The notes: a model not told the origin generated them from the sequence alone. Counted from the first letter of the stretch, positions 2,966-59,176 are shown. The stretch is 64,000 bases of DNA from Candidatus Omnitrophota bacterium (GCA_037146775.1 JBAWWL010000003.1:133956-197955); one strand, 5' to 3'. Program-made: numbers and translations.

Positions 2966-3445
2966 TTGTCGCGGGGGTATAGGAATATGGCAAAATTATC
3001 CGTTAACGATAAGATTTGTGTAATTATCACCAGCCTTTTTGGCGTTGGTTTTGCGCCGCTTTTCGGCGGCACGCTTGCTTCGGTTGTTGCGGTAGCCGTG
3101 TTTCTCCTGGTAAAAAGTCAGTTCTATTTTTCTCTGATTACTGTTTTTTCGATTATTCTTGCTTTTGCGTTATCCGGACACGCCGAAAAAATTTGGGACG
3201 AAAAAGATTCCAAGAAAATCGTTATTGATGATTTCTGCGGAATGCTTGTTTCGTTGCTGTTTATCCCGTACGACATGCGGATGGTGGCGTGTGGTTTTGT
3301 CGTATTTCGTTTGTTTGATGCTTTCAAGGTTCCGCCTATCGATAGAATCGAAAACCTCAAAGGCGCAGCCGGCGTAGTGGGCGACGATATAGCGGCCGGC
3401 CTGTATACCCTCGTTATTCTTCATATAACCAAACTTTTTATTTAA
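2966..3445 (+). CDS. pgpA: Phosphatidylglycerophosphatase A
   Basis: It has PgpA-family motifs ('DDFCGMLVSLLF', 'FRLFDAFKVPPI', 'GVVGDDIAAGLY'). It is adjacent to pgsA, as is common. Confidence 0.75.
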   Translation: MSRGYRNMAKLSVNDKICVIITSLFGVGFAPLFGGTLASVVAVAVFLLVKSQFYFSLITVFSIILAFALSGHAEKIWDEKDSKKIVIDDFCGMLVSLLFIPYDMRMVACGFVVFRLFDAFKVPPIDRIENLKGAAGVVGDDIAAGLYTLVILHITKLFI

Positions 3446-3448
3446 TGA

Positions 3449-3498
3449 GCACATTATTTTTTCTGCGTGTTTCCGCACTTAGAAAAAAATAATAGTGC
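3449..3498. repeat. About 48-nt AT-rich palindromic element (copy 1), immediately after the pgpA stop; terminator-like
   Basis: 'cacattattttttctgcgtgtttccgcacttagaaaaaaataatagtgc'. The arms are an inverted repeat (gcac-tattattttt / aaaaataat-gtgc). A near-identical element occurs at 37757-37806. Confidence 0.5.
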
Positions 3499-3585
3499 GA
3501 ATTATCCCGCCGTAGTCGCTAATAATTCCCTACGGTAATTCTTAGCGTATCTGGCGAAGGCGGGATAACGTCAAATCCACCGACT

Positions 3586-3704
3586 TATAGTCGGTGGTGG
3601 GGCTCAAGGGGGCGAAGTTCCCATACCCTATGTTGTCCACCAACAAAGTTGGTGGCAGGTATTCAAAGATATTTGGGAGAAACCACCGAAGAATTCGGTG
3701 GTAA
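3586..3704. other. Three consecutive hairpins with near-identical 8-bp stems CCACCRAM / KTYGGTGG (unexplained structured region between convergent genes)
   Basis: The hairpins are 'ccaccgacttatagtcggtgg', 'ccaccaacaaagttggtgg' and 'ccaccgaagaattcggtgg'. Upstream at about 3512-3572 is a nested pseudoknot-like set of inverted repeats (cccgcc/ggcggg, ccgtag/ctacgg, cgctaa/ttagcg). No ORF lies here on either strand. Confidence 0.4.
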
Positions 3705-3733
3705 TTCATGCGACTCGCTAGATACCCCCAACC

Positions 3734-4285
3734 TTATCCTTTTTTCATGGCTGCGGAGAATATTCTTTCATATACCGGGCCGGTAGGCTTGAGGGTGCTT
3801 TTAAAAAGAACAATTTCCTTAACAGGCATTTTTTCCTGAACGGAAACTTTTTTTAGTTCATTTTTTAAGGCTTCGATATTTTTTGTGCTTTTTAACCGGG
3901 CCAAGGTAATGTGCGAAGTGAATCTATTTTCTTTGGCAAATCCCAACTTCTCAAGCGCATCTTCCAGTTTCATTGCTATATGTTTTAATTCTTCTTCTCT
4001 GTTTGTTGCCACAAAGAATACGCGGGGGTGTTTTTCGTTGGGGAAGAATCCAAAGTTATTTAAAGTTGCTTCCAGGCAGCTAGACCAGTCGGCAGCCTCT
4101 TTAATAACTTTTTGAATCTCCGCTATCTTTTCTTCAGTTACTTCCCCTAGGAACTTGAGGCTGAGATGAAGATTTTTATCTTGAACCCATTTTGCATCCA
4201 AGTCGTATTTCGTAAACCCCTTTATCAATAAAGCGAGTTTTTGTTTGATTTCGTCAGGCAGGTCTATGGCGATGAATAAACGCAT
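3734..4285 (-). CDS. thpR: RNA 2',3'-cyclic phosphodiesterase (2H phosphoesterase, LigT/ThpR)
   Basis: It has two HxT/Sx motifs ('HLSLKFLGEV', 'HITLARL') and is 183 aa long. Confidence 0.8.
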   Translation of the reverse strand: MRLFIAIDLPDEIKQKLALLIKGFTKYDLDAKWVQDKNLHLSLKFLGEVTEEKIAEIQKVIKEAADWSSCLEATLNNFGFFPNEKHPRVFFVATNREEELKHIAMKLEDALEKLGFAKENRFTSHITLARLKSTKNIEALKNELKKVSVQEKMPVKEIVLFKSTLKPTGPVYERIFSAAMKKG

Positions 4286-4983: not shown

Positions 4984-4999
4984 AATGATAACGATTATT
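4984..4999 (+). promoter_or_regulatory. Fur-box-like operator upstream of the fur-family gene; candidate -35 TTGACA about 5015 and -10 TACAGT about 5037
   Basis: 'AATGATAACGATTATT' compared with Fur-box consensus GATAATGATAATCATTATC. It sits just upstream of a sigma70-like -35/-10 pair in front of the Fur-family gene. Confidence 0.5.
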
Positions 5000-5051
5000 G
5001 TTTAATAATAATTATTGACAAAATATAAAAGCATGTTACAGTAACCTAATT

Positions 5052-5459
5052 ATGGAAGACTGTATAAAAATTTTAAAACAAAAGGGCGTTAAGGTAACCA
5101 GCCAGCGTACGGAAGTTTTTCGCGTGTTACGCAGCGTGCAGGAGCATTTGAGCGTTGAAGAGGTGTTCGATAAGGTACGTAAGAAATTCCCGGTAATTTC
5201 CCTGGCCACGGTATATTCTATTTTAGAAGCGCTCAAAAACAATAGTTTAATTGAGGAATTACGGATTATTCCCGAGAAGGCTTGTTTTAATGTGCGTACC
5301 GACCTACACCATCATTTTTACTGTAAAAAATGTAAAAAGATCAGTGACGTAGATATACCTTTTTGTGCTACCTTAGACAAGAAAGAAGTAGCCGGAAATC
5401 TTATAGAGGAATGCAAAGGTTATTTTTATGGCATATGTAAAGCGTGCAGAAAAAAATAG
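5052..5459 (+). CDS. Fur-family transcriptional regulator (PerR/Fur-like)
   Basis: It has an N-terminal winged helix ('TSQRTEVFRVLRS...HLSVEEVFDKV') and a C-terminal CxxC...CxxC zinc site ('HHHFYCKKCKK...CKAC'). Confidence 0.85.
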   Translation: MEDCIKILKQKGVKVTSQRTEVFRVLRSVQEHLSVEEVFDKVRKKFPVISLATVYSILEALKNNSLIEELRIIPEKACFNVRTDLHHHFYCKKCKKISDVDIPFCATLDKKEVAGNLIEECKGYFYGICKACRKK

Positions 5460-5460
5460 T

Positions 5461-6402
5461 ATGTTGAAACCAAAAATTTCCATTATAGGTGCGGGTAATG
5501 TGGGTATTCGTTACGCGTATAGTCTCATGATGTCGGGATTTGCCCGTTCCATTGTTATTGTCGACGTTGATGCCAAACGCGCACAAGGGGAGGTTTTGGA
5601 TTTAGCCAGCGGCCTGCCGTATGTTTCTCCGGTAGAGATATTGGCAGGCGATTATACAGACATAGTGTATTCGGACGTTGTGGTGATCACCGCCGGGAAG
5701 AAACAGAAACCCGGTCAAACTCGGTTAGAGTTGGTTAAAGATAATGTAGAAATTTTTAGAAGTATTATTCCTCAGATTATCCGTTACGCTAAAGAAGCGA
5801 TTTTAGTAATTGCGACGAATCCGGTGGATATTCTTTCTTATGCCACATACAGAATTTCCGGCAAACCCTGGCAGGAAATCATAGGTTCAGGGACGGTTTT
5901 AGATACAGCGCGCCTGCGCCTGCTGTTATCAAAACACTGTGATATTGACAGTCGCAATATTCACGCCTATATTTTAGGCGAACACGGTGATAGCGAACTT
6001 CCGGTATGGAGCAGTGCCATGCTTGGCGGCACATTCTTGAAAGACTATTGCCCGCTTTGCAATAAGTGTAACCCCCATGACACGCTTAACGCTATTTTCG
6101 AAGAGGTAAAAACTTTTGCTTATCGAGTGATAGAGCGCAAGGGAGAAACTTCGTACGGTATAGGGTTGGCCTTGACGAGAATCACCGAGGCAATCGTGAA
6201 AGATGAGAATTCGGTATTGCCTGTTTCCTGCCTTGCTCAAGATTATTATAAGATACACGAAGTATATATGGGATTACCAGCCGTGGTGTGCCGCAAGGGA
6301 GTAAGAGAAATATTGAAACTACAATTAAACAGCGAAGAGACAAAACAGCTAGAGTTTTCGGCACAAACCTTAAAATCGGTCATAAAGGAAGTGGGGCTAT
6401 GA
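5461..6402 (+). CDS. ldh: L-lactate dehydrogenase (LDH/MDH family; Gln at the substrate-specificity position suggests LDH)
   Basis: It has the Rossmann motif 'ISIIGAGNVG', 'ITAGKKQKPGQTRLELV', 'IATNPVD' and 'GEHGDSE'. An alternative in-frame ATG at 5428 would add 11 aa. Confidence 0.75.
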   Translation: MLKPKISIIGAGNVGIRYAYSLMMSGFARSIVIVDVDAKRAQGEVLDLASGLPYVSPVEILAGDYTDIVYSDVVVITAGKKQKPGQTRLELVKDNVEIFRSIIPQIIRYAKEAILVIATNPVDILSYATYRISGKPWQEIIGSGTVLDTARLRLLLSKHCDIDSRNIHAYILGEHGDSELPVWSSAMLGGTFLKDYCPLCNKCNPHDTLNAIFEEVKTFAYRVIERKGETSYGIGLALTRITEAIVKDENSVLPVSCLAQDYYKIHEVYMGLPAVVCRKGVREILKLQLNSEETKQLEFSAQTLKSVIKEVGL

Positions 6403-9486: not shown

Positions 9487-10500
9487 ATGAAGAAAAACTC
9501 CTCCAAAACCTCTAAAAAAACGCCTGTAAAAAAAGAAAAAAAATCTTTACTTAAGCGTGTTGTGTCACGCATTTCCCGACGCAGTAAAAAAGCACCTATC
9601 CAAGAAGAAATCGTTTCTCCAAAACCCACCTATTCCTTAGAAGCAGAAAAAGAAGCGGTAGAGATTGAAAAAGTTAATTTTACCGCAGTCCAAGAGACTA
9701 AACCCGAATCGGCGTATAACTTGCCGCTGCGTTATGGCGATAACCGTATAGTGCTCCTGGCGCGTGACCCGTGGTGGTTGCACACGTATTGGGATGTTGC
9801 CGAGCAGAGGATTAACGAAGTTATTTCTTCAATACCGGTTTATGAGCGGGAAAATTTAAAGTGGATAATTCGCGTGTATGACGTAACAGGCATTAAGAAC
9901 TTTGAAGGTAATAATGCGAACGCTTTTTTTGATATCGATATCCGTTTTGAAGCAAATAACTGGTATGTTAACGTTAACCAGCCGGAACGTGACTGGTGTG
10001 TGGAAATAGGCTTAATCAATCCTTTCGGTAAGTTCTTTCCCGTTGCCCGTTCCAACATTATCAAGACGCCTTATTTCGGTATTTCGTCCGTTATCGATGA
10101 AGAGTGGGCTTTACCGGATGAAGATTATTATAAAGTGTTGGGAGTTTATGATTTGGGAAAGAGCTCTTTGGAGAGAAAGAAAAAGTTTGAAGAAATCATC
10201 AAGCATCAGATCTCATCACCGTTGGCTTCCTGGGGTATGAGCAGCTTGTTCAGCGAGCGGCCTCGCGTTGCGGATAAATTTTTCTTAGAAGTATGGACAG
10301 AGCTTATTCTTTACGGCCGGACCGAACCGGACGCTGACGTTACGGTAGAAGGCAAAAAAGTCCATCTAAAATCAGACGGTACGTTTTCGCTGCGTTACGC
10401 TCTTCCGGTGGGAGATTATACGTATCAAGTGGTCGGTGTTTCAAAGAACAAGAAACACAAGATTACCAAAACTCCCGCAGTAAAACGGTTCGATAAATAA
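9487..10500 (+). CDS. DUF4912 domain protein (Lys-rich N-terminus)
   Basis: It has the signature 'RIVLLARDPWWLHTYWDV'. This family is often found beside GH57 genes. Confidence 0.7.
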   Translation: MKKNSSKTSKKTPVKKEKKSLLKRVVSRISRRSKKAPIQEEIVSPKPTYSLEAEKEAVEIEKVNFTAVQETKPESAYNLPLRYGDNRIVLLARDPWWLHTYWDVAEQRINEVISSIPVYERENLKWIIRVYDVTGIKNFEGNNANAFFDIDIRFEANNWYVNVNQPERDWCVEIGLINPFGKFFPVARSNIIKTPYFGISSVIDEEWALPDEDYYKVLGVYDLGKSSLERKKKFEEIIKHQISSPLASWGMSSLFSERPRVADKFFLEVWTELILYGRTEPDADVTVEGKKVHLKSDGTFSLRYALPVGDYTYQVVGVSKNKKHKITKTPAVKRFDK

Positions 10501-10545
10501 ACCAGAAAACAGAAAACAGGGGACAGATAACAGAAAATCTGTCTT
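10501..10545. repeat. Heptad repeat element (RACAGAA)n ending in a 7-bp hairpin gacagat/atctgtc (site A)
   Basis: 'accagaa aacagaa aacaggg gacagat aacagaa aatctgt'. It has a 7-nt period. Confidence 0.5.
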
Positions 10546-25290: not shown

Positions 25291-25420
25291 GCCCAGCTCC
25301 GCTTTCCATGAGAATGGTCACGCCTTGTGGCTACAGCTACTCGCTGCGTTTCCGCTTTTGGTGAGCCTCGTCTTCGGCGGGAAACTTTGTCGAAGCGGGC
25401 GAACCCCCCTTTTACTTATT

Positions 25421-25565
25421 AAACCCGAAACACTAAACCCTAAATCCTAAATAAACTCAAAACGAAAAAATAAAAATTCAAAACGATACTATTTTGAGTT
25501 TGAAATATTTAAGTTTTTGGTTGTTTGTTTGTTTAGGATTTAGGGTTTGAGGTTTAGAGTTTATG
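25421..25565. repeat. Long AT-rich inverted repeat (about 60-nt arms) between convergent genes; bidirectional terminator-like
   Basis: 'aaaccctaaatcctaaataaactcaaaa' ... 'ttttgagttt...tttaggatttagggttt'. The arms are exact reverse complements over 17 nt or more. It is preceded by a short GC-rich segment at 25291-25400. Confidence 0.6.
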
Positions 25566-34414: not shown

Positions 34415-36079
34415 ATGAACGGAGCACGAATACTCATTGAGTCGCTTTTAAAAGAAAAGGTAGAGGTAATGTTTGGTTATCCTGGCGGCCAGGTTTTGCC
34501 AATTTTTGACGCGTTATACGATGCTCCGATCAGGTTTATCTTGACGCGCCACGAACAAGCTGCAGCCCACGCTGCCGATGGTTACGCCCGGGCAACGGGT
34601 AAAGTGGGTGTGTGCCTTGCGACGAGTGGCCCTGGCGCGACTAATTTGACCACAGGCATCGCTACCGCCTACATGGATTCTATCCCGATGGTCGCTATTA
34701 CCGGCCAGGTGAAGACGTTTTTGATCGGTAACGACGCTTTTCAGGAAGCAGATGTTACCGGTATTACCCGGCCTATAACGAAACACAATTATTTAGTTAA
34801 AGATATAAAAGATTTGGCGCGTATTATACAGGAAGCTTTTCATATTGCTTCTACCGGCAGGCCCGGCCCGGTATTAATCGATATCCCCAGTGATATCCAA
34901 CAGCAGAACTATGAATTTATTTGGCCGGAGGAAGTTAATATTAAAGGCTATAAACCAACATATTTCGGCCATCCCGGACAAATCAAAAGAGCGGCAAAAT
35001 TAATCGTTCAGGCAAAAAGGCCTATTATTTATGCCGGTGGAGGGGTTATCACTTCCGGTGCCCATCGGGAATTAAAAATATTGGCAGAAAAGATAAAGGC
35101 TCCGGTGACCATGACCTTGATGGGTTTGGGAGGATTTCCCGGTACCCACGAACTTTCTTTGGGAATGCTCGGTATGCACGGCACCGCATATGCCAACCAC
35201 GCTATTATGGAGTCAGACTTGATCATTGCCGTCGGCGCGCGTTTTGACGACAGGGTTACCGGACGGCTTGACGCTTTTGCGAAAGGCGCAAAGATAATAC
35301 ATATTGACGTTGATCCGTCGTCAATCAGCAAAAATGTCGGTGCGGAAATTCCGGTCGTCGGCGACGCGAGAAATATTTTAGGCCAGTTGCTAGAAGAAAT
35401 AAAAAAAGTTCCCGATACAAAAGAATGGCTTAAGACTATAGAAGGCTGGAAGAAAAAATATCCTCTCTCTTATAAAGATAAAACGAAAATCAGCCCCCAA
35501 TATGTCATGGAACAAATTTATAGTATAACTGCCGGTGACGCTATTATAGCCACCGAGGTCGGACAACATCAAATGTGGGCAGCGCAATGGTACAAATATC
35601 TTTATCCGCGCACGTTTATTTCCAGCGGCGGATTGGGCACTATGGGGTTTGGTTTTCCCGCAGCCATGGGTGCGAAGATTGCTTTTCCCGAAAAATTGGT
35701 TTTTGATATTGCCGGCGATGGCTCTATTCAGATGAACATACAGGAGTTGGCTACCTGTGTGTGTAATAAGATAAACGTGAAGGTAATTATATTTAATAAT
35801 GGTTATTTAGGCATGGTGCGGCAGTGGCAGGAATTGTTTTATAAAAAGCGCTATTCTCATGTGTGTATTACCGCGCCAGATTTTGTGAAGTTGGCGCAAA
35901 GCTACGGTGCCGAAGGAATCCGCATTACTAAAAAAGAAGAAGTGCGCAAAGCTTTGGAGAAAGCCATGAGTATAGATAACACGGTGTTTGTCGATATTCA
36001 GGTTGAGCCGGAAGAGAATGTATTTCCGATGGTTCCGGCAGGAGAAGCTATCAACCGGTTCATCGGCGGGTTGGCCTAG
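34415..36079 (+). CDS. ilvB: Acetolactate synthase large subunit
   Basis: It has TPP motifs '[14 protein letters not shown]' and '[14 protein letters not shown]'. It is 554 aa. Confidence 0.9.
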
Positions 36080-36137
36080 GAATATTAAGAATCAAAAATA
36101 AGATATAAGTTTTTTATTTTTAGAGGTATAAAGACGG

Positions 36138-36608
36138 ATGAGACATACAATTTCAGTTATAGTCGAAAATAAACCGGGAGTATTGGCACGCATTTCAGGA
36201 TTATTCAGCGCGCGAGGTTACAATATTGCTTCTTTAGCGGTGAGCGAAACATTGGATCCTACCATATCCTATATGACTATGGTGGTGGACGCAGAGGACG
36301 AGCGTATTTTAGAGCAGATAAAAAAACAGCTTAATAAGCTTATCGACGTTATCACCGTTACTGATTTTACTAAAAAAGAACATGTCGAGAGAGAATTAAT
36401 TCTAGTAAAAGTGAACTATGCTGCAAAAGAGAAGAGTAAACTGACAGCTATTTTAAATAAATATATGGCGAAAATAGTGCTTCATAATGCGGATACGGCT
36501 ATTATTGAGGCAGTAGGTGAGCAGGAAGTTATCAAGCAATTGTTGGTCGTGTTGGATAAGATTGGAATAAAAGAATTAATTAGGACAGGAAAAATAGCCA
36601 TCGCTTAG
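36138..36608 (+). CDS. ilvN: Acetolactate synthase small (regulatory) subunit
   Basis: It has an ACT domain ('ISVIVENKPGVLARISGLFSARGYNI'). It is 156 aa and directly follows ilvB. Confidence 0.85.
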   Translation: MRHTISVIVENKPGVLARISGLFSARGYNIASLAVSETLDPTISYMTMVVDAEDERILEQIKKQLNKLIDVITVTDFTKKEHVERELILVKVNYAAKEKSKLTAILNKYMAKIVLHNADTAIIEAVGEQEVIKQLLVVLDKIGIKELIRTGKIAIA

Positions 36609-36609
36609 G

Positions 36610-36693
36610 AAACAGAGGACAGATATCAGAGGTCAGAGGACAGAAGTCAGACGTCAGGTGTCAGAAGACAGAAAAAAGAAGTCAGAATCATAA
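36610..36693. repeat. Tandem heptad repeat (GNCAGAN) x about 12, 7-nt period (site B) in the ilvN-ilvC spacer
   Basis: 'aacagag gacagat atcagag gtcagag gacagaa gtcagac gtcaggt gtcagaa gacagaa aaaagaa gtcagaa'. Confidence 0.7.
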
Positions 36694-36718
36694 CAGTTGA
36701 ATAATAAGGAGGTAGAAG

Positions 36719-37711
36719 ATGGCACAGGTGTATTATGACAAGGACGCGGATCTTGATTTATTAAAAGGCAAAACCATCGCTATCATCGGCTACGGTATTC
36801 AGGGTCGCGGCCAGGCGTTGTGTTTACGCGATACGGGCTGTACCGTAATTGTTTCGGAGCTTTCAGGTACACCGAACTATGAGCAGGCAAAGAAAGATGG
36901 TTTTAATCCTGTTTCTGCCGCTCAGGCCGCTACAGAAGGAGACATTATCCAGATTTTAACTCAAGATCATGTACAGGCGAAAGTGTACGCAGAACATATT
37001 AAGCCAAACCTGAAAAAAGGAAAAGCGCTTTGTTTTTCGCACGGATTTAATATCCGTTTTAAACAGATAAAACCGCCAAAAAATGTAGACGTCTTTATGG
37101 TTGCTCCTAAGGGCCCAGGAGCTTTGGTGCGGCGTATGTATGAGGAAGGTAAGGGTGTTCCTTGTTTAGTCGCAGTTTTCCAGGATGGATCAGGCCAGGC
37201 AAAACAGCTTGCGCTTGCTTATGCGAAAGCCATCGGCGGTACTCGCATGGGAGTTATTGAAACAACTTTTGCGGAAGAGACCGAAACCGATTTATTTGGT
37301 GAACAGGCGGTGCTTTGCGGTGGTGTCAGTGAGCTGATCAAGGCTGGTTTTGATACTTTGATCGAAGCAGGATATCAACCGGAGATTGCTTATTTCGAAG
37401 TACTACACGAATTAAAGCTCATTACAGATTTAATACAGGAATTTGGTATCAGCGGAATGCGGCGCCGAGTTTCCAATACTGCGTGTTACGGTGATCTCAC
37501 CAGGGGGCCGATGGTAGTTAACGAAAAAACACGTAAAACCATGCAAAAGATTCTTAAAAGTATCCGCTCGGGAAAGTTTGCGCGGGAATGGATCAAAGAA
37601 AATGAAGCCGGCAGAAAGAATTTTGATAGCCTTTTGAAGAAAGGCGATGAACACAAAATAGAACAAGTAGGAAAACAGCTTCGGGAAATGATGCCTTGGA
37701 TGAAAAAATAG
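36719..37711 (+). CDS. ilvC: Ketol-acid reductoisomerase
   Basis: It has '[23 protein letters not shown]' and '[12 protein letters not shown]'. The RBS is 'aaggagg'. Confidence 0.9.
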
Positions 37712-37756
37712 ATCCTTCGGTTGCTTTGCAGCCTCAGGATTAATTCGCACTATTAT

Positions 37757-37806
37757 TTTTTTGCGTGCCTTTGACACTTGGAAAAATAATGTGCTTATTA
37801 AAATGA
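37757..37806. repeat. About 48-nt AT-rich palindromic element (copy 2), 45 nt after the ilvC stop
   Basis: 'gcactattatttttttgcgtgcctttgacacttggaaaaataatgtgc' is near-identical to 3449-3498. Confidence 0.5.
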
Positions 37807-37827
37807 TGCCCTGGATGAAAAACAAAT

Positions 37828-37898
37828 AACAGAAGACAGAAAACAGAAGTCAGATAATTTTTTTCTGACCTCTGTCATCTGATATCTGACTTCTGAAT
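37828..37898. repeat. Heptad repeat element in hairpin configuration (site C): four direct RACAGAA heptads, a T-run loop, five inverted heptads
   Basis: 'aacagaa gacagaa aacagaa gtcagat aattttttt ctgacct ctgtcat ctgatat ctgactt ctgaata'. Confidence 0.65.
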
Positions 37899-37911
37899 AA
37901 CTTTGATGCCA

Positions 37912-39408
37912 ATGGAAAAGATTATAATATTTGATACGACATTGCGCGACGGAGAACAGGCGCCGGGCGCTTCCTTGACCTCAGAGCAAAAACTTGAGGT
38001 GGCATGTCAATTGGAAAAGCTTGGGGTTGATATTATTGAGGCCGGTTTTCCTATTGCCAGCCCCGATGATTTTAAAGCGGTAAGTACCATTGCCCGGGTT
38101 ATTAAACATTGCGCGGTATGTGGTTTAGCGCGCTGCGTCAAGGCGGACATTGAAGCAGCGGGCAATTCTTTAAGGAAAGCGAAGCGTCCGCGTATCCACA
38201 TTTTTCTTGCCACTTCCAAGATTCATCTACAATATAAATTTCACAAAGTTGAAGAAGAAATTTTAACATTAGCTAAACAGGCAATTCAAATGGCAAGAAA
38301 GCATTGTGATGATATAGAATTTTCTCCCGAAGACGCCACGCGTACCGAACGAGATTTTCTTTTCCGTGTGATAGAAACCGCTATCAAAGAAGGGGCGAAA
38401 ACGATCAATATACCCGACACTGTCGGTTATAGCTATCCGCAAGAAATTCATTCGTTGATTATGGATATTATCAACAACGTTCCCAATATAAACCAAGCCA
38501 CCCTTTCAATTCATTGTCATGATGACTTAGGAATGGCAACTGCGAATTCTTTATCGGCCATTTTAGCCGGTGTGCGCCAGGTACATTGTACGATTAACGG
38601 TATAGGCGAACGTGCCGGAAACGCTTCGTTGGAAGAAATTGTTATGGCGCTTAAAACCCGGCGCGATGCATTTGAACATTTCAGCAACGGTATTAACACA
38701 AAAGAATTGTATCGTACTTCGAGATTGGTTAGTGTTTCAACCAGCTTTGTGGTGCCTCCCAATAAAGCCATTGTGGGCGAAAATGCCTTTCGCCATGAGT
38801 CGGGGATTCACCAGGACGCAATGCTTAAAAAACGCACCACTTACGAGATTATGGATCCCAAAGATGTGGGAATAGAAAGCAGTGAACTGGTATTAGGAAA
38901 GCATTCCGGAAGACACGCTCTTTGTGCGCGGCTCAAACATCTCGGTTTGCAGTTGGATGAAAGAAGAGTTGAGACAGTTTTTAAGAAATTTAAAGAACTT
39001 GCCGATAAGAAGAAAGAGATATTTGACGAAGATTTGGTTACGTTAGCCGAGGAAGAAACGCGGGAGCATAAGAAAGGTTTCGAACTGGTCTCGGTACAGG
39101 TTATGACCGGTACGGATATCGTTCCTGATGCAACCGTGAAGCTGAAATACAAGAAAAAAATCTATCAAGCTCATTCAGGCGGAGACGGCCCGGTGGATGC
39201 TTGTTATAAGGCGATTGACAAAATTACCAAAATAAAGACGAAGCTGGTAAGTTACAAACTTGAAGCTATTACCAAAGGAAAAGACGCGCAAGGGTTAGTG
39301 AGGGTAGAGTTAAAAGTTGGCGGTAAGGCGGTGAGCGGCCGTGGTGCAAGTACCGATATTTTAGAGGCATCAGCCCGTGCGTATCTTGACGCGTTGAATA
39401 AGATTTAG
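37912..39408 (+). CDS. leuA: 2-isopropylmalate synthase
   Basis: It has 'IIIFDTTLRDGEQAPG' and 'HCHDDLGMATANSL', with a C-terminal regulatory domain. Alternative starts lie at 37903 and 37906. Confidence 0.9.
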   Translation: MEKIIIFDTTLRDGEQAPGASLTSEQKLEVACQLEKLGVDIIEAGFPIASPDDFKAVSTIARVIKHCAVCGLARCVKADIEAAGNSLRKAKRPRIHIFLATSKIHLQYKFHKVEEEILTLAKQAIQMARKHCDDIEFSPEDATRTERDFLFRVIETAIKEGAKTINIPDTVGYSYPQEIHSLIMDIINNVPNINQATLSIHCHDDLGMATANSLSAILAGVRQVHCTINGIGERAGNASLEEIVMALKTRRDAFEHFSNGINTKELYRTSRLVSVSTSFVVPPNKAIVGENAFRHESGIHQDAMLKKRTTYEIMDPKDVGIESSELVLGKHSGRHALCARLKHLGLQLDERRVETVFKKFKELADKKKEIFDEDLVTLAEEETREHKKGFELVSVQVMTGTDIVPDATVKLKYKKKIYQAHSGGDGPVDACYKAIDKITKIKTKLVSYKLEAITKGKDAQGLVRVELKVGGKAVSGRGASTDILEASARAYLDALNKI

Positions 39409-39428
39409 GCAACATGAAAGAGGGTAAT

Positions 39429-39893
39429 ATGCGTTATGTGCTAAATATTATCGCGATTCTTATAGTGGTTGCGATTACAATCGGGATAATCCAGTACCGA
39501 CAACATTCTTCAACGTATCCTTTCGAGGGTACCTTCAAGCAGGCTTACAAAAATCTGGGCAAAACTCTGCGGGCAAAAGAAAAAGAAGTCCTTGTTTCTG
39601 TTTCTCCGGACAGGAAACGAGCTCTTACTTTTATTACCAAGGAAACGGCACTGCGAGAGCTTGTCCCGGAGTTATTCGGCACGTTTGACGAGCAGGAGTG
39701 GGAATACTTCTGGGGACTTCTCTATGATCCAATGGCTATTAAAAAGGGGAAGAAACCCGTTAAAACCTATCGTTCACGGGATGAAATTGAAAGCGTTTTA
39801 CGCGACCGGTATTCCGAGACTCTCGGTTACTATGATGACGCTAAGTGGTTTGCGTTGTGGAAAGCCGCCGGCGTGGATTGGTCACAATGGTAG
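39429..39893 (+). CDS. Hypothetical membrane-anchored protein
   Basis: It has an N-terminal TM 'VLNIIAILIVVAITIGII' and an aromatic-rich soluble domain. It has no family match. Confidence 0.45.
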   Translation: MRYVLNIIAILIVVAITIGIIQYRQHSSTYPFEGTFKQAYKNLGKTLRAKEKEVLVSVSPDRKRALTFITKETALRELVPELFGTFDEQEWEYFWGLLYDPMAIKKGKKPVKTYRSRDEIESVLRDRYSETLGYYDDAKWFALWKAAGVDWSQW

Positions 39894-56314: not shown

Positions 56315-56532
56315 GGTCTTTGGCCGGGTGAGCGATGCATTCTTGATGCGTTCGTTGGTGCGTTCCTTCGGCAGGCTCAGGACGCTCAAGTAATGTCGGA
56401 GCGAAACCACGCCTTTTAAGGCGCGAAACATACGCTCGCCGCTTGGTATGGTTTCGGCTATGGCTCAGCCAAGTGCCCAGTCTCCCGTGCAAACCCCTGG
56501 ATTAAAACTTGGGGAAAGTCGAATGGGTTGAT

Positions 56533-56567
56533 TTTTCTTTCTTGACCAATCTTTACTATGGCAGTAT
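56533..56567 (+). promoter_or_regulatory. Sigma70-like promoter TTGACC-17-TATTAT, copy 1 of a duplicated promoter
   Basis: 'cttgaccaatctttactatggcagtattatttttt' is near-identical in its 3' half to 58998-59032. Confidence 0.4.
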
Positions 56568-56707
56568 TATTTTTTCGATCGCTTACGAAAACAGATCGGT
56601 AGGAAAATTTTATATCAGTCAGGTATGATCCGGACGGCGGTTTTATAATTCTTGAAAATAAGCTTCTATAGGAGTAATTTCTTCTAACTTTTAAGGAGGG
56701 TATTGCG

Positions 56708-58957: not shown

Positions 58958-58997
58958 TTTGTTATTTTCTTTGATATCGTCAAACCTTACCTTTTTT

Positions 58998-59032
58998 GCT
59001 CTTGACGCATGTATGGTATAGCAGTATTATTT
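58998..59032 (+). promoter_or_regulatory. Sigma70-like promoter TTGACG-17-TATTAT, copy 2 of a duplicated promoter
   Basis: 'cttgacgcatgtatggtatagcagtattatttttt'. Confidence 0.4.
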
Positions 59033-59176
59033 TTTAATCATTACTCGAATTGCCGAGTACCTTGGCCCCGGTTATTACGGGCTGTATCACGAAGTAGGGG
59101 CGTGATATCTTTAAGGCAGTGTAATGGAAAAATATTTTCGAAATAGCTAAGGACATAATTTGTAAACGGGGGCACA

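Follow-up and report, generated by a model that had tools for sequence, protein, structure and literature searches.

The ilvC-leuA junction and its duplicated gene end

In a 64 kb stretch of a Candidatus Omnitrophota genome, the whole of which we call the window, we have found that the 3' end of ilvC, the gene for ketol-acid reductoisomerase, is repeated ahead of the downstream gene leuA, and that the two copies enclose a pair of hairpins, named here element M. The features of the junction, together with a second copy of M elsewhere in the window, are as follows.

36719-37711, + strand: ilvC (ketol-acid reductoisomerase), from the list of open reading frames (ORFs), its translation and homologues of that name (at most 96% identical)
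37686-37711, + strand: copy 1 (c1) of the direct repeat, the true ilvC 3' end; 22-mer at 37686-37707, with similarity on to the stop
37712-37740, + strand: hairpin H1 of M (RNA fold), ATCCT-TC-GGTTGC / GCAGCC-TC-AGGAT, beginning directly after the ilvC stop
37741-37802, + strand: hairpin H2 of M, TAATTCGCAC-TATTATTTTTTT...AAAAATAAT-GTGCTTATTAA
37801-37829, + strand: copy 2 (c2) of the direct repeat; 22-mer at 37801-37822, mini-ORF at 37803-37829
37830-37895, + strand: heptad-repeat hairpin, (CAGANNN)x4 / (NNNTCTG)x4-5, an element of a distinct kind between c2 and leuA
37912-39408, + strand: leuA (2-isopropylmalate synthase), ATG at 37912 by homology (MEKIIIFDTTLRDGEQ); the mechanical ORF start is the TTG at 37903
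3441-3568, - strand: second copy of M in the window (copy B), H1 at 3502-3568 and H2 at approximately 3441-3509, with no flanking direct repeat

The ilvC product ends in REMMPWMKK, with the stop codon TAG at 37709-37711. An initial annotation had reported a 22-nucleotide (nt) duplication of this end with 21 of 22 positions identical, and a repeat search recovered exactly that: AAATGATGCCTTGGATGAAAAA (37686-37707) and AAATGATGCCCTGGATGAAAAA (37801-37822), 115 nt apart. The ends that it had given, 37712 and 37829, were slightly too generous for the 22-mer, which stops at 37707 and 37822. When one 3-nt indel is allowed, direct reading carries the similarity on to both stop codons (ATGAAAAAA, a three-base gap and TAG, against ATGAAAAACAAATAA). 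The copies are separated by an insert, as had been claimed, although it spans 89 nt from the ilvC stop to c2 rather than 88 (93 nt between the two 22-mers). Within c2 lies the mini-ORF ATGATGCCCTGGATGAAAAACAAATAA (37803-37829), which encodes MMPWMKNK and a stop; the translations agree with the proposed resemblance to the IlvC C terminus, MMPWMKK, and the mini-ORF is, on its sequence, a second copy of the gene end. The heptad hairpin was correctly placed directly after it, beginning at the base that follows the stop (37830). Programmed translational bypassing of the T4 gene 60 (byp) type was considered and rejected, as the frame closes right after c2 with the TAA at 37827-37829 and no additional coding sequence follows in it.

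Local direct repeats of at least 18 nt number 3 in the 64-kb window, and the ilvC-end repeat is the longest. One of the others (18 nt, 48591/48795) sits within a TPR repeat gene and the remaining one, also 18 nt, lies at 2785/3125. Ten Markov-shuffled windows yielded 0-1 such repeats, none as long as the ilvC-end repeat.

RNA folding fills the gap between the ilvC stop and c2 exactly with the two adjacent hairpins of M. Relatives carry hairpins homologous to H1 in the corresponding place, their closing pairs being of the TCC...GGA type, and H2 is a long AT-rich hairpin between TAATTCGCAC and GTGCTTATTAA that ends where c2 starts. H2 is the feature that had been described as the second copy of a palindrome, and the first copy does lie in the window, at approximately 3449-3497. 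When nine H2 copies, from relatives as well as the window, were aligned, 19 consensus pairs emerged, 10 of them with compensatory changes. The covariance model built from this alignment recovered both window copies and detected additional ones at other junctions of relatives; the copy at ilvC-leuA matched at 37736-37802 with 60.5 bits (E ~5e-11). Ranging from 62 to 136 nt, M holds no ORF and is non-coding, with a predicted hairpin structure.

Rfam gave no meaningful match, either for the whole window at the gathering threshold or for 36560-37960 and 3380-3800 at E <= 5. No tRNA or tmRNA was found in the window using ARAGORN, and the ilvC end is therefore not an attachment (att) site of the tRNA type. 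A promoter and terminator scan of 36000-39500 returned nothing in the ilvC-leuA spacer. An internal promoter was rejected as a candidate: the H2 loop contains a TTGACA, but relatives do not conserve it and no suitable -10 sequence accompanies it. A literature search returned no description of Omnitrophota intergenic repeats.

Element M in relatives of the window

In order to compare the junction between genomes, 176 loci were collected, each relative being read over at most 9 kb, and ilvC-downstream spacers of 30-600 nt were scanned for each locus's own last 18 ilvC bases. The best IlvC matches were 86% identical to the window protein in a one-genome-per-species set and 96% in a metagenome protein set. 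Scores of at least 14/18 were obtained only in the window and in L007, L013, L019, L093, L095, L097, L099/L100 and L104; all other scanned loci and the reversed-sequence controls reached at most 13/18. The positive loci all fall within an Omnitrophota clade of 82-86% IlvC identity to the window, and they share one order: ilvC stop, GC-rich H1, longer H2, ATG(ATG)CCNTGGATGAARAAR with its stop, leuA. The arrangement of ilvC end, M and ilvC end is therefore present at nine loci from eight other lineages besides the window, with H1 and H2 predicted at all nine.

Presence of the repeat is tied to M at this site. Every M insert at the ilvC-leuA junction (the window and the nine loci) has the repeat, which is missing from all the remaining scanned spacers downstream of ilvC, even where heptad hairpins, whole genes or other palindromes occupy them. 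L081, the nearest relative identified (IlvC 96% identical in amino acids), has an unrelated 50-nt spacer without M, repeat or heptad hairpin; its ilvC is 84.9% identical to that of the window in nucleotides and 60% at third codon positions, a relationship that is not particularly close. Additional close IlvC relatives (L171-L176) yielded no other junction that combines M with the repeat. The comparison of ilvC-leuA spacers had been set beforehand as the test of the annotation's suggestion of an insertion footprint. It favors that suggestion: the arrangement is patchy rather than a fixed ancient feature, the insert is a discrete, repetitive element that occurs once more in the window and also in relatives, and L081 lacks insert and duplication alike. 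As judged from these spacers, the pattern at the ilvC-leuA junction is a recurrent one in this Omnitrophota clade and not a one-off.

The inserts fall into M subfamilies: L019 with L095; L104 with L097; L007 with L093, L099 and L013; and the window. The H2 stems of L019 and L095 covary around a conserved loop, AARCGCCAGAGGC. In all cases c2 starts at an ilvC Met codon, and the junction between M and c2 is constant within each subfamily. The length of the repeat varies from approximately 21 nt to approximately 70 nt, the longest being that of L007 (52 of 74 positions identical), where c2 together with its tail has its orthologue in L098, in the spacer and genuine end of ilvC (MRSERK, GAGCGAAGTCCC). 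Because this tail is lineage-specific and shared with the L098 gene end, the L007 duplication arose as a separate event with limits of its own.

A neighbor-joining tree of two proteins, IlvC and LeuA, with 200 bootstraps places the M-bearing junctions at scattered tips. M occurs in the window and not in L081 (support for the pair 100), in L104 and not in L011 (support 100, 96% amino acid identity), and in L013 and not in L105 or L094 (support for the three 100). L019 and L099 are sisters (support 83), yet they carry different M subfamilies. Conversely, M is 95.5% identical over 66 nt between L104 and L097, at the same position and with the same M-c2 junction, whereas identity between the two is 75.8% for ilvC (50% at third positions) and 71.6% for leuA. 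No raised-identity stretch indicative of a recombination tract was found in the flanks of these two inserts. Large-patch homologous recombination is thus not supported, and M itself would be the unit that moved. The sequences indicate that M has moved between lineages, or has entered L104 and L097 recently from a common source.

M is also dispersed outside this junction. Copy B lies between the pgpA stop and a structured region downstream of a LigT-like gene, its H2 end overlapping the stop codon of pgpA (2966-3445, + strand), and both copies in the window have in common the module H1, AATTCGCAC, H2 and GTGCTYATTAAA. In addition to these two copies in 64 kb, M occurs in relatives at ilvD-ilvB of L108, twice in ilvN-ilvC of L096 and in L091 downstream of another gene. 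None of the five copies outside ilvC-leuA has a flanking direct repeat above the shuffled background.

Several further observations concern the family. In copies of M that lie in reverse, the end on the H2 side (reverse complement ...T(T/A)AATGAG...) overlaps with the stop codon of the adjacent gene and provides it in part or in full, as at 3441-3449 in the window (pgpA), 566-575 in L108 (ilvD) and 8798-8805 in L091 (an unnamed gene), and M consequently adjoins coding sequence there without a spacer. The H2 stem arms of copy B and of the junction copy (copy A) are identical over 21-22 nt, while the loop of copy B (3463-3486) matches that of copy A (37762-37784) better when flipped (17/25) than in element orientation (12/28); this difference looks like a hairpin-loop flip. 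At the 3' end of ilvN in L096 (1850-1871), the codons for ELIRT read GGAATTAATTCGCAC, which is nearly the M signature motif GGATTAATTCGCAC, and two M copies follow in the spacer. The window ilvN uses AGG for Arg and has no such match, and the similarity in L096 could be a coincidence or a hint at the origin of the motif.

H1-like TCCCGC...GCGGGA hairpins occur in clusters in relatives. In L114, a long non-coding stretch after ilvC (4994-5760) is dense in hairpins and includes three copies of TCCCGCA(A/G)(T/A)TTGCGGGAT, one of which is followed by TAGTTCG, a combination reminiscent of H1 with the AATTCG motif of M. H1-type hairpins may accordingly constitute a family of their own, resembling repetitive extragenic palindromes (REPs). 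Around copy B, the stretch 3430-3740 (approximately 300 nt, copy B included) folds far better than shuffles (z = -7.5). Between copy B and the LigT-like gene (3734-4285), the region 3569-3733 (minus strand) holds three similar CCACCGA...TCGGTGG hairpins and may be an undescribed non-coding RNA or another repeat cluster.

The ilvC-leuA junction is also a hot spot for inserts of other kinds (L011 3162-4470, L012 3987-5855, L173 2494-3170, L030, L122, L155 and L157). That of L011 encodes a secreted protein and, judging from the translations of a pair of ORFs, a nucleotidyltransferase and a HEPN protein; that of L012 encodes a 622-aa protein, that of L173 has two small ORFs, and the others carry other genes. 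These large inserts are tightly coupled stop to start, and none has the ilvC-end repeat.

Origin and possible role of the repeat

Differences between c1 and c2 fall at third codon positions in 18 of 25 cases, which is a significant bias against an expectation of 1/3 (p = 9e-5) and also against one of 0.44, which allows for constraint on copy 1 only (p = 0.004). With the exception of L013, where c1 and c2 are identical, c2 is on average no closer to the c1 of its own lineage (18.0/21) than to the c1 of other lineages (17.6/21; p = 0.23). Non-synonymous decay is seen in c2 of L095 and L097. Compared with element-free relatives over a small number of sites, c2 fits better in the window, L019 and L099 and c1 fits better in L095; L104 is tied. 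A neutrally decaying local duplicate in most lineages disagrees with the codon bias and with the equal own and cross-lineage similarity. Three readings fit: a target mimic carried or regenerated by the element, an allele-like imported copy, and an old copy under selection.

We hold with moderate confidence that the two ilvC-end copies are direct repeats around M, the footprint of a horizontally spreading hairpin element that has repeatedly landed at the 3' end of ilvC. M belongs to a family of structured intergenic repeats of the clade, variants of which are placed at ilvC-leuA in many lineages, and the conserved last 21-26 nt of ilvC (ATG(ATG)CCNTGGATGAARAAR and stop) would act as the target or attachment sequence. 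As this sequence would end up on both sides of M, the IlvC C terminus would remain intact and the downstream DNA would keep its upstream context. The sequences show the repeat, the element with its family, the recurrence at this site and a patchy, partly horizontal distribution; from these we infer that M moves or is exchanged, with the end of ilvC as target. A more specific form of the proposal is offered tentatively, namely that M is a miniature non-autonomous element that homes to the last 21-26 nt of ilvC by an undescribed route, with c2 under a codon-like constraint through the match to the target or as a relay mini-ORF. In both cases, a copy of six to eight codons from the end of a housekeeping gene would be a selected and functional part of a mobile element.

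Several points weigh against a spreading element that targets ilvC. No recombinase or transposase lies next to any M copy, as far as the immediate flanks and the few window ORFs scanned against Pfam are concerned, and M is too small to encode one. An autonomous parent did not emerge from the large inserts of L011 and L012, which show no repeat and no obvious recombinase in their translations, read without a Pfam scan. M copies elsewhere lack the flanking repeat, so that a long duplication is no general property of M insertion, and repeat lengths of 21 to approximately 70 nt are too variable for a target-site duplication or an att core of fixed size. The equal own and cross-lineage similarity of c1 and c2 could equally mean an old duplication with c2 under selection. 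Moreover, copy number and target preference are poorly sampled by 64 kb of one genome and the short stretches of its relatives.

In the window, no Shine-Dalgarno (SD) sequence was found upstream of leuA. Pairing to the anti-SD has a median of -3.1 kcal/mol for leuA versus -10.8 for ilvC and is weak in both tight and M-bearing junctions, and the sole leuA match, GGATGA, comes from Trp-Met codons. In element-free relatives the gap from the ilvC stop to the leuA ATG is 0-16 nt. Since leuA lacks an SD and the ilvC stop is this close in relatives, the ilvC end would be the natural upstream context of leuA. Termination-reinitiation coupling of ilvC and leuA is plausible, and c2 could preserve the upstream context of leuA behind the inserted hairpins. 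The resemblance to such coupling lies in a leuA without SD that starts, in relatives, near the stop of ilvC or of the mini-ORF. It is lessened by the lack of an SD before the mini-ORF, whose translation is putative, and by the 82-nt gap in the window. As a coupling signal, which the annotation had offered as its alternative, the mini-ORF is plausible for L019, L093, L095, L097 and L104, where the c2 stop lies at most 4 nt from the leuA ATG and in L019 overlaps it. It is a minority possibility for the family and a weak one for the window, where the 66-nt heptad hairpin also lies between mini-ORF and leuA; here the mini-ORF would most probably be a by-product whose function, if any, is slight.

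The corresponding alternative to a spreading element is an old duplication whose c2 has been kept as a translated relay for leuA. Translation would begin at the ATG that directly follows H2, run for 6-8 codons, end beside leuA and be re-initiated there, which would restore the coupling of element-free junctions. We consider this rather unlikely, although several observations speak for it: the short gap of element-free junctions and the near absence of an SD of leuA's own, the five relatives that reproduce that geometry, the Met codon at the start of c2 and its open frame with a stop in 9/9 lineages, the third-position bias, and the equal own and cross-lineage similarity, as expected of an old constrained copy. 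That bias is also expected, however, if the copy came from another lineage's ilvC or mimics a conserved target, and c2 of L095 and L097 is decaying. Most lineages have no SD before the mini-ORF, whose ATG sits at the foot of a stable hairpin, and the distance from its end to leuA is long not only in the window but also in L013 (130 nt), L007 (47 nt) and L099 (22 nt). Other inserts without repeat or SD stand in L082, L091, L105, L106 and L008, so that the coupling would be dispensable. Near-identical M in distant lineages and patchiness at the tips are further at odds with a purely old, vertical feature.

A one-off local accident without site specificity is clearly less probable still. A tandem or slippage duplication could have come first, with M entering the neutral gap, or replication could have switched template, taken up M from elsewhere and resumed at a point upstream; the occurrences in other lineages would then trace back to a single old event, followed by many losses by recombination between the repeats. 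The varying length of the repeat is more in keeping with template switching or homologous events than with a transposase, direct repeats around hairpins are easily deleted and could yield patchiness, and M occurs elsewhere without repeats. Against this, the predicted intermediate, a c1-c2 tandem without M, was seen at none of approximately 60 clade junctions, the L007 repeat with its lineage-specific tail formed separately from the 21-nt repeats of others, and sister lineages carry different M subfamilies while distant lineages share one. A leucine or branched-chain attenuator, in which MMPWMKNK would be a leader peptide controlling the next hairpin and leuA transcription, matches in its outward layout of short ORF, strong hairpin and leuA, but is effectively refuted and left with a very small probability. 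Codons for Leu, Ile or Val are missing from the peptide, which copies the IlvC C terminus, AAUAACUUUG rather than a U-run stands after the hairpin, a terminator scan finds nothing at 37680-37930, no Rfam leader family matches even at E <= 5, and M-bearing junctions of relatives lack the heptad hairpin. Hardest of all to credit is chance similarity or an artefact fusing two strain variants. The organism is uncultured and its genome presumably a metagenome assembly, and the repeated segment is short; yet no shuffled window produced a repeat of this length, and the architecture recurs, with sequences of its own, in nine other contigs from different projects and assemblers.

Among known systems, the closest parallels are REP-like and MITE-like repeats for the element and att repeats at gene 3' ends for the duplication, each of which fails in at least one defining feature. 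M resembles REPs and bacterial interspersed mosaic elements (BIMEs), enterobacterial repetitive intergenic consensus (ERIC) sequences and miniature inverted-repeat transposable elements (MITEs) in being short (60-130 nt), non-coding, hairpin-forming and multi-copy, and in occupying intercistronic spacers of operons, in either orientation and differently between close relatives. MITEs have terminal inverted repeats and target duplications of 2-10 bp, and REPs leave none. M, in contrast, lies at ilvC-leuA between repeats of a coding gene end (21-70 nt) and has none at its other sites, and terminal inverted repeats with a short fixed duplication at every copy were not found.

Insertions of the integrase type at gene 3' ends have att repeats that rebuild the gene end, as in islands at tRNA and tmRNA genes, and in ICESt1 and integrase-less CIME derivatives at fda. 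As in these, the direct repeat at M equals the last ~20-30 nt of a conserved gene, which is left intact, the same site is used in different hosts, and the differences between copies resemble those between orthologous alleles. M differs in its size of 62-136 nt, in having no recombinase gene within or beside it, in its variable repeat length, and in that the repeat copies of L104 and L097 are less similar between genomes than M is. Insertion sequences of the IS1634 group generate long direct repeats of variable length, but are kilobase-sized and encode a transposase; the long variable duplications are a likeness, and nothing indicates that M is a derivative.

Heptad repeats, a promoter-like pair and wider meaning

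The heptad hairpin next to c2 is absent from the M-bearing junctions of relatives. CAG-heptad hairpins directly follow the ilvC stop in L090 and L082/L091, and comparable heptad-repeat hairpins with a different motif occur in L174-L176. The hairpin is probably older than M in the lineage of the window; if so, the repeat would not have been needed there to keep the context of leuA. Heptad-repeat hairpins with other heptamers occupy the ilvC-leuA spacers of L017, L022, L023, L027, L082, L090 and L174. Elsewhere in the window, approximately eleven CAGANNN units fill the ilvN-ilvC spacer (36613-36687), a short AAAACAG array lies at 10499-10537, and a TAAACCC array (25420-25451) faces a GTTTAGG array (25531-25563) approximately 100 nt away; the pattern CAGANNNCAGANNNCAGA has 18 matches in the window versus 0.1 expected. 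The array at 36613-36677 and the 3' arm of the heptad hairpin (37859-37895) are 84-85% complementary over 33-37 nt, and the ilvC cistron is flanked by sequences that might pair over 1.2 kb, a complementarity that the shared heptamer may explain.

Heptamer repeats, namely the TAACTGA repeats of Beggiatoaceae and the cyanobacterial short tandemly repeated repetitive (STRR) sequences, are described as intergenic arrays of 7-nt period just upstream of start codons, often without a canonical ribosome-binding site (PMC4679880). The heptad hairpin is like them in its 7-nt period and its position upstream of starts, and differs in that the arrays here form inverted pairs (hairpins) and consist of CAGANNN rather than a fixed word. 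This comparison concerns the neighboring heptad hairpin and not the ilvC-end duplication. Far from the junction, two 44-nt segments (56532-56575 and 58992-59035) are 77% identical with a good sigma-70 layout (TTGACC/TTGACG, 17 nt, TATTAT, T-run) and are probably related promoters.

Short hairpin repeats between genes are commonly dismissed as junk with no preferred site of insertion. The M family recurs at one tight junction, where it is always accompanied by a duplicated gene end, and the spacers can be entirely different between genomes whose IlvC is 96% identical. Annotators should avoid labelling mini-ORFs and duplicated gene ends of this kind as leader peptides or pseudogenes. If targeting is the explanation, a tiny non-coding element would hit a conserved coding sequence without destroying it; if retention is, a few duplicated codons would keep the translation of the next gene working. 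Both readings bear on how compact operons tolerate mobile DNA, and on the turnover of intergenic sequence in a major uncultured phylum.

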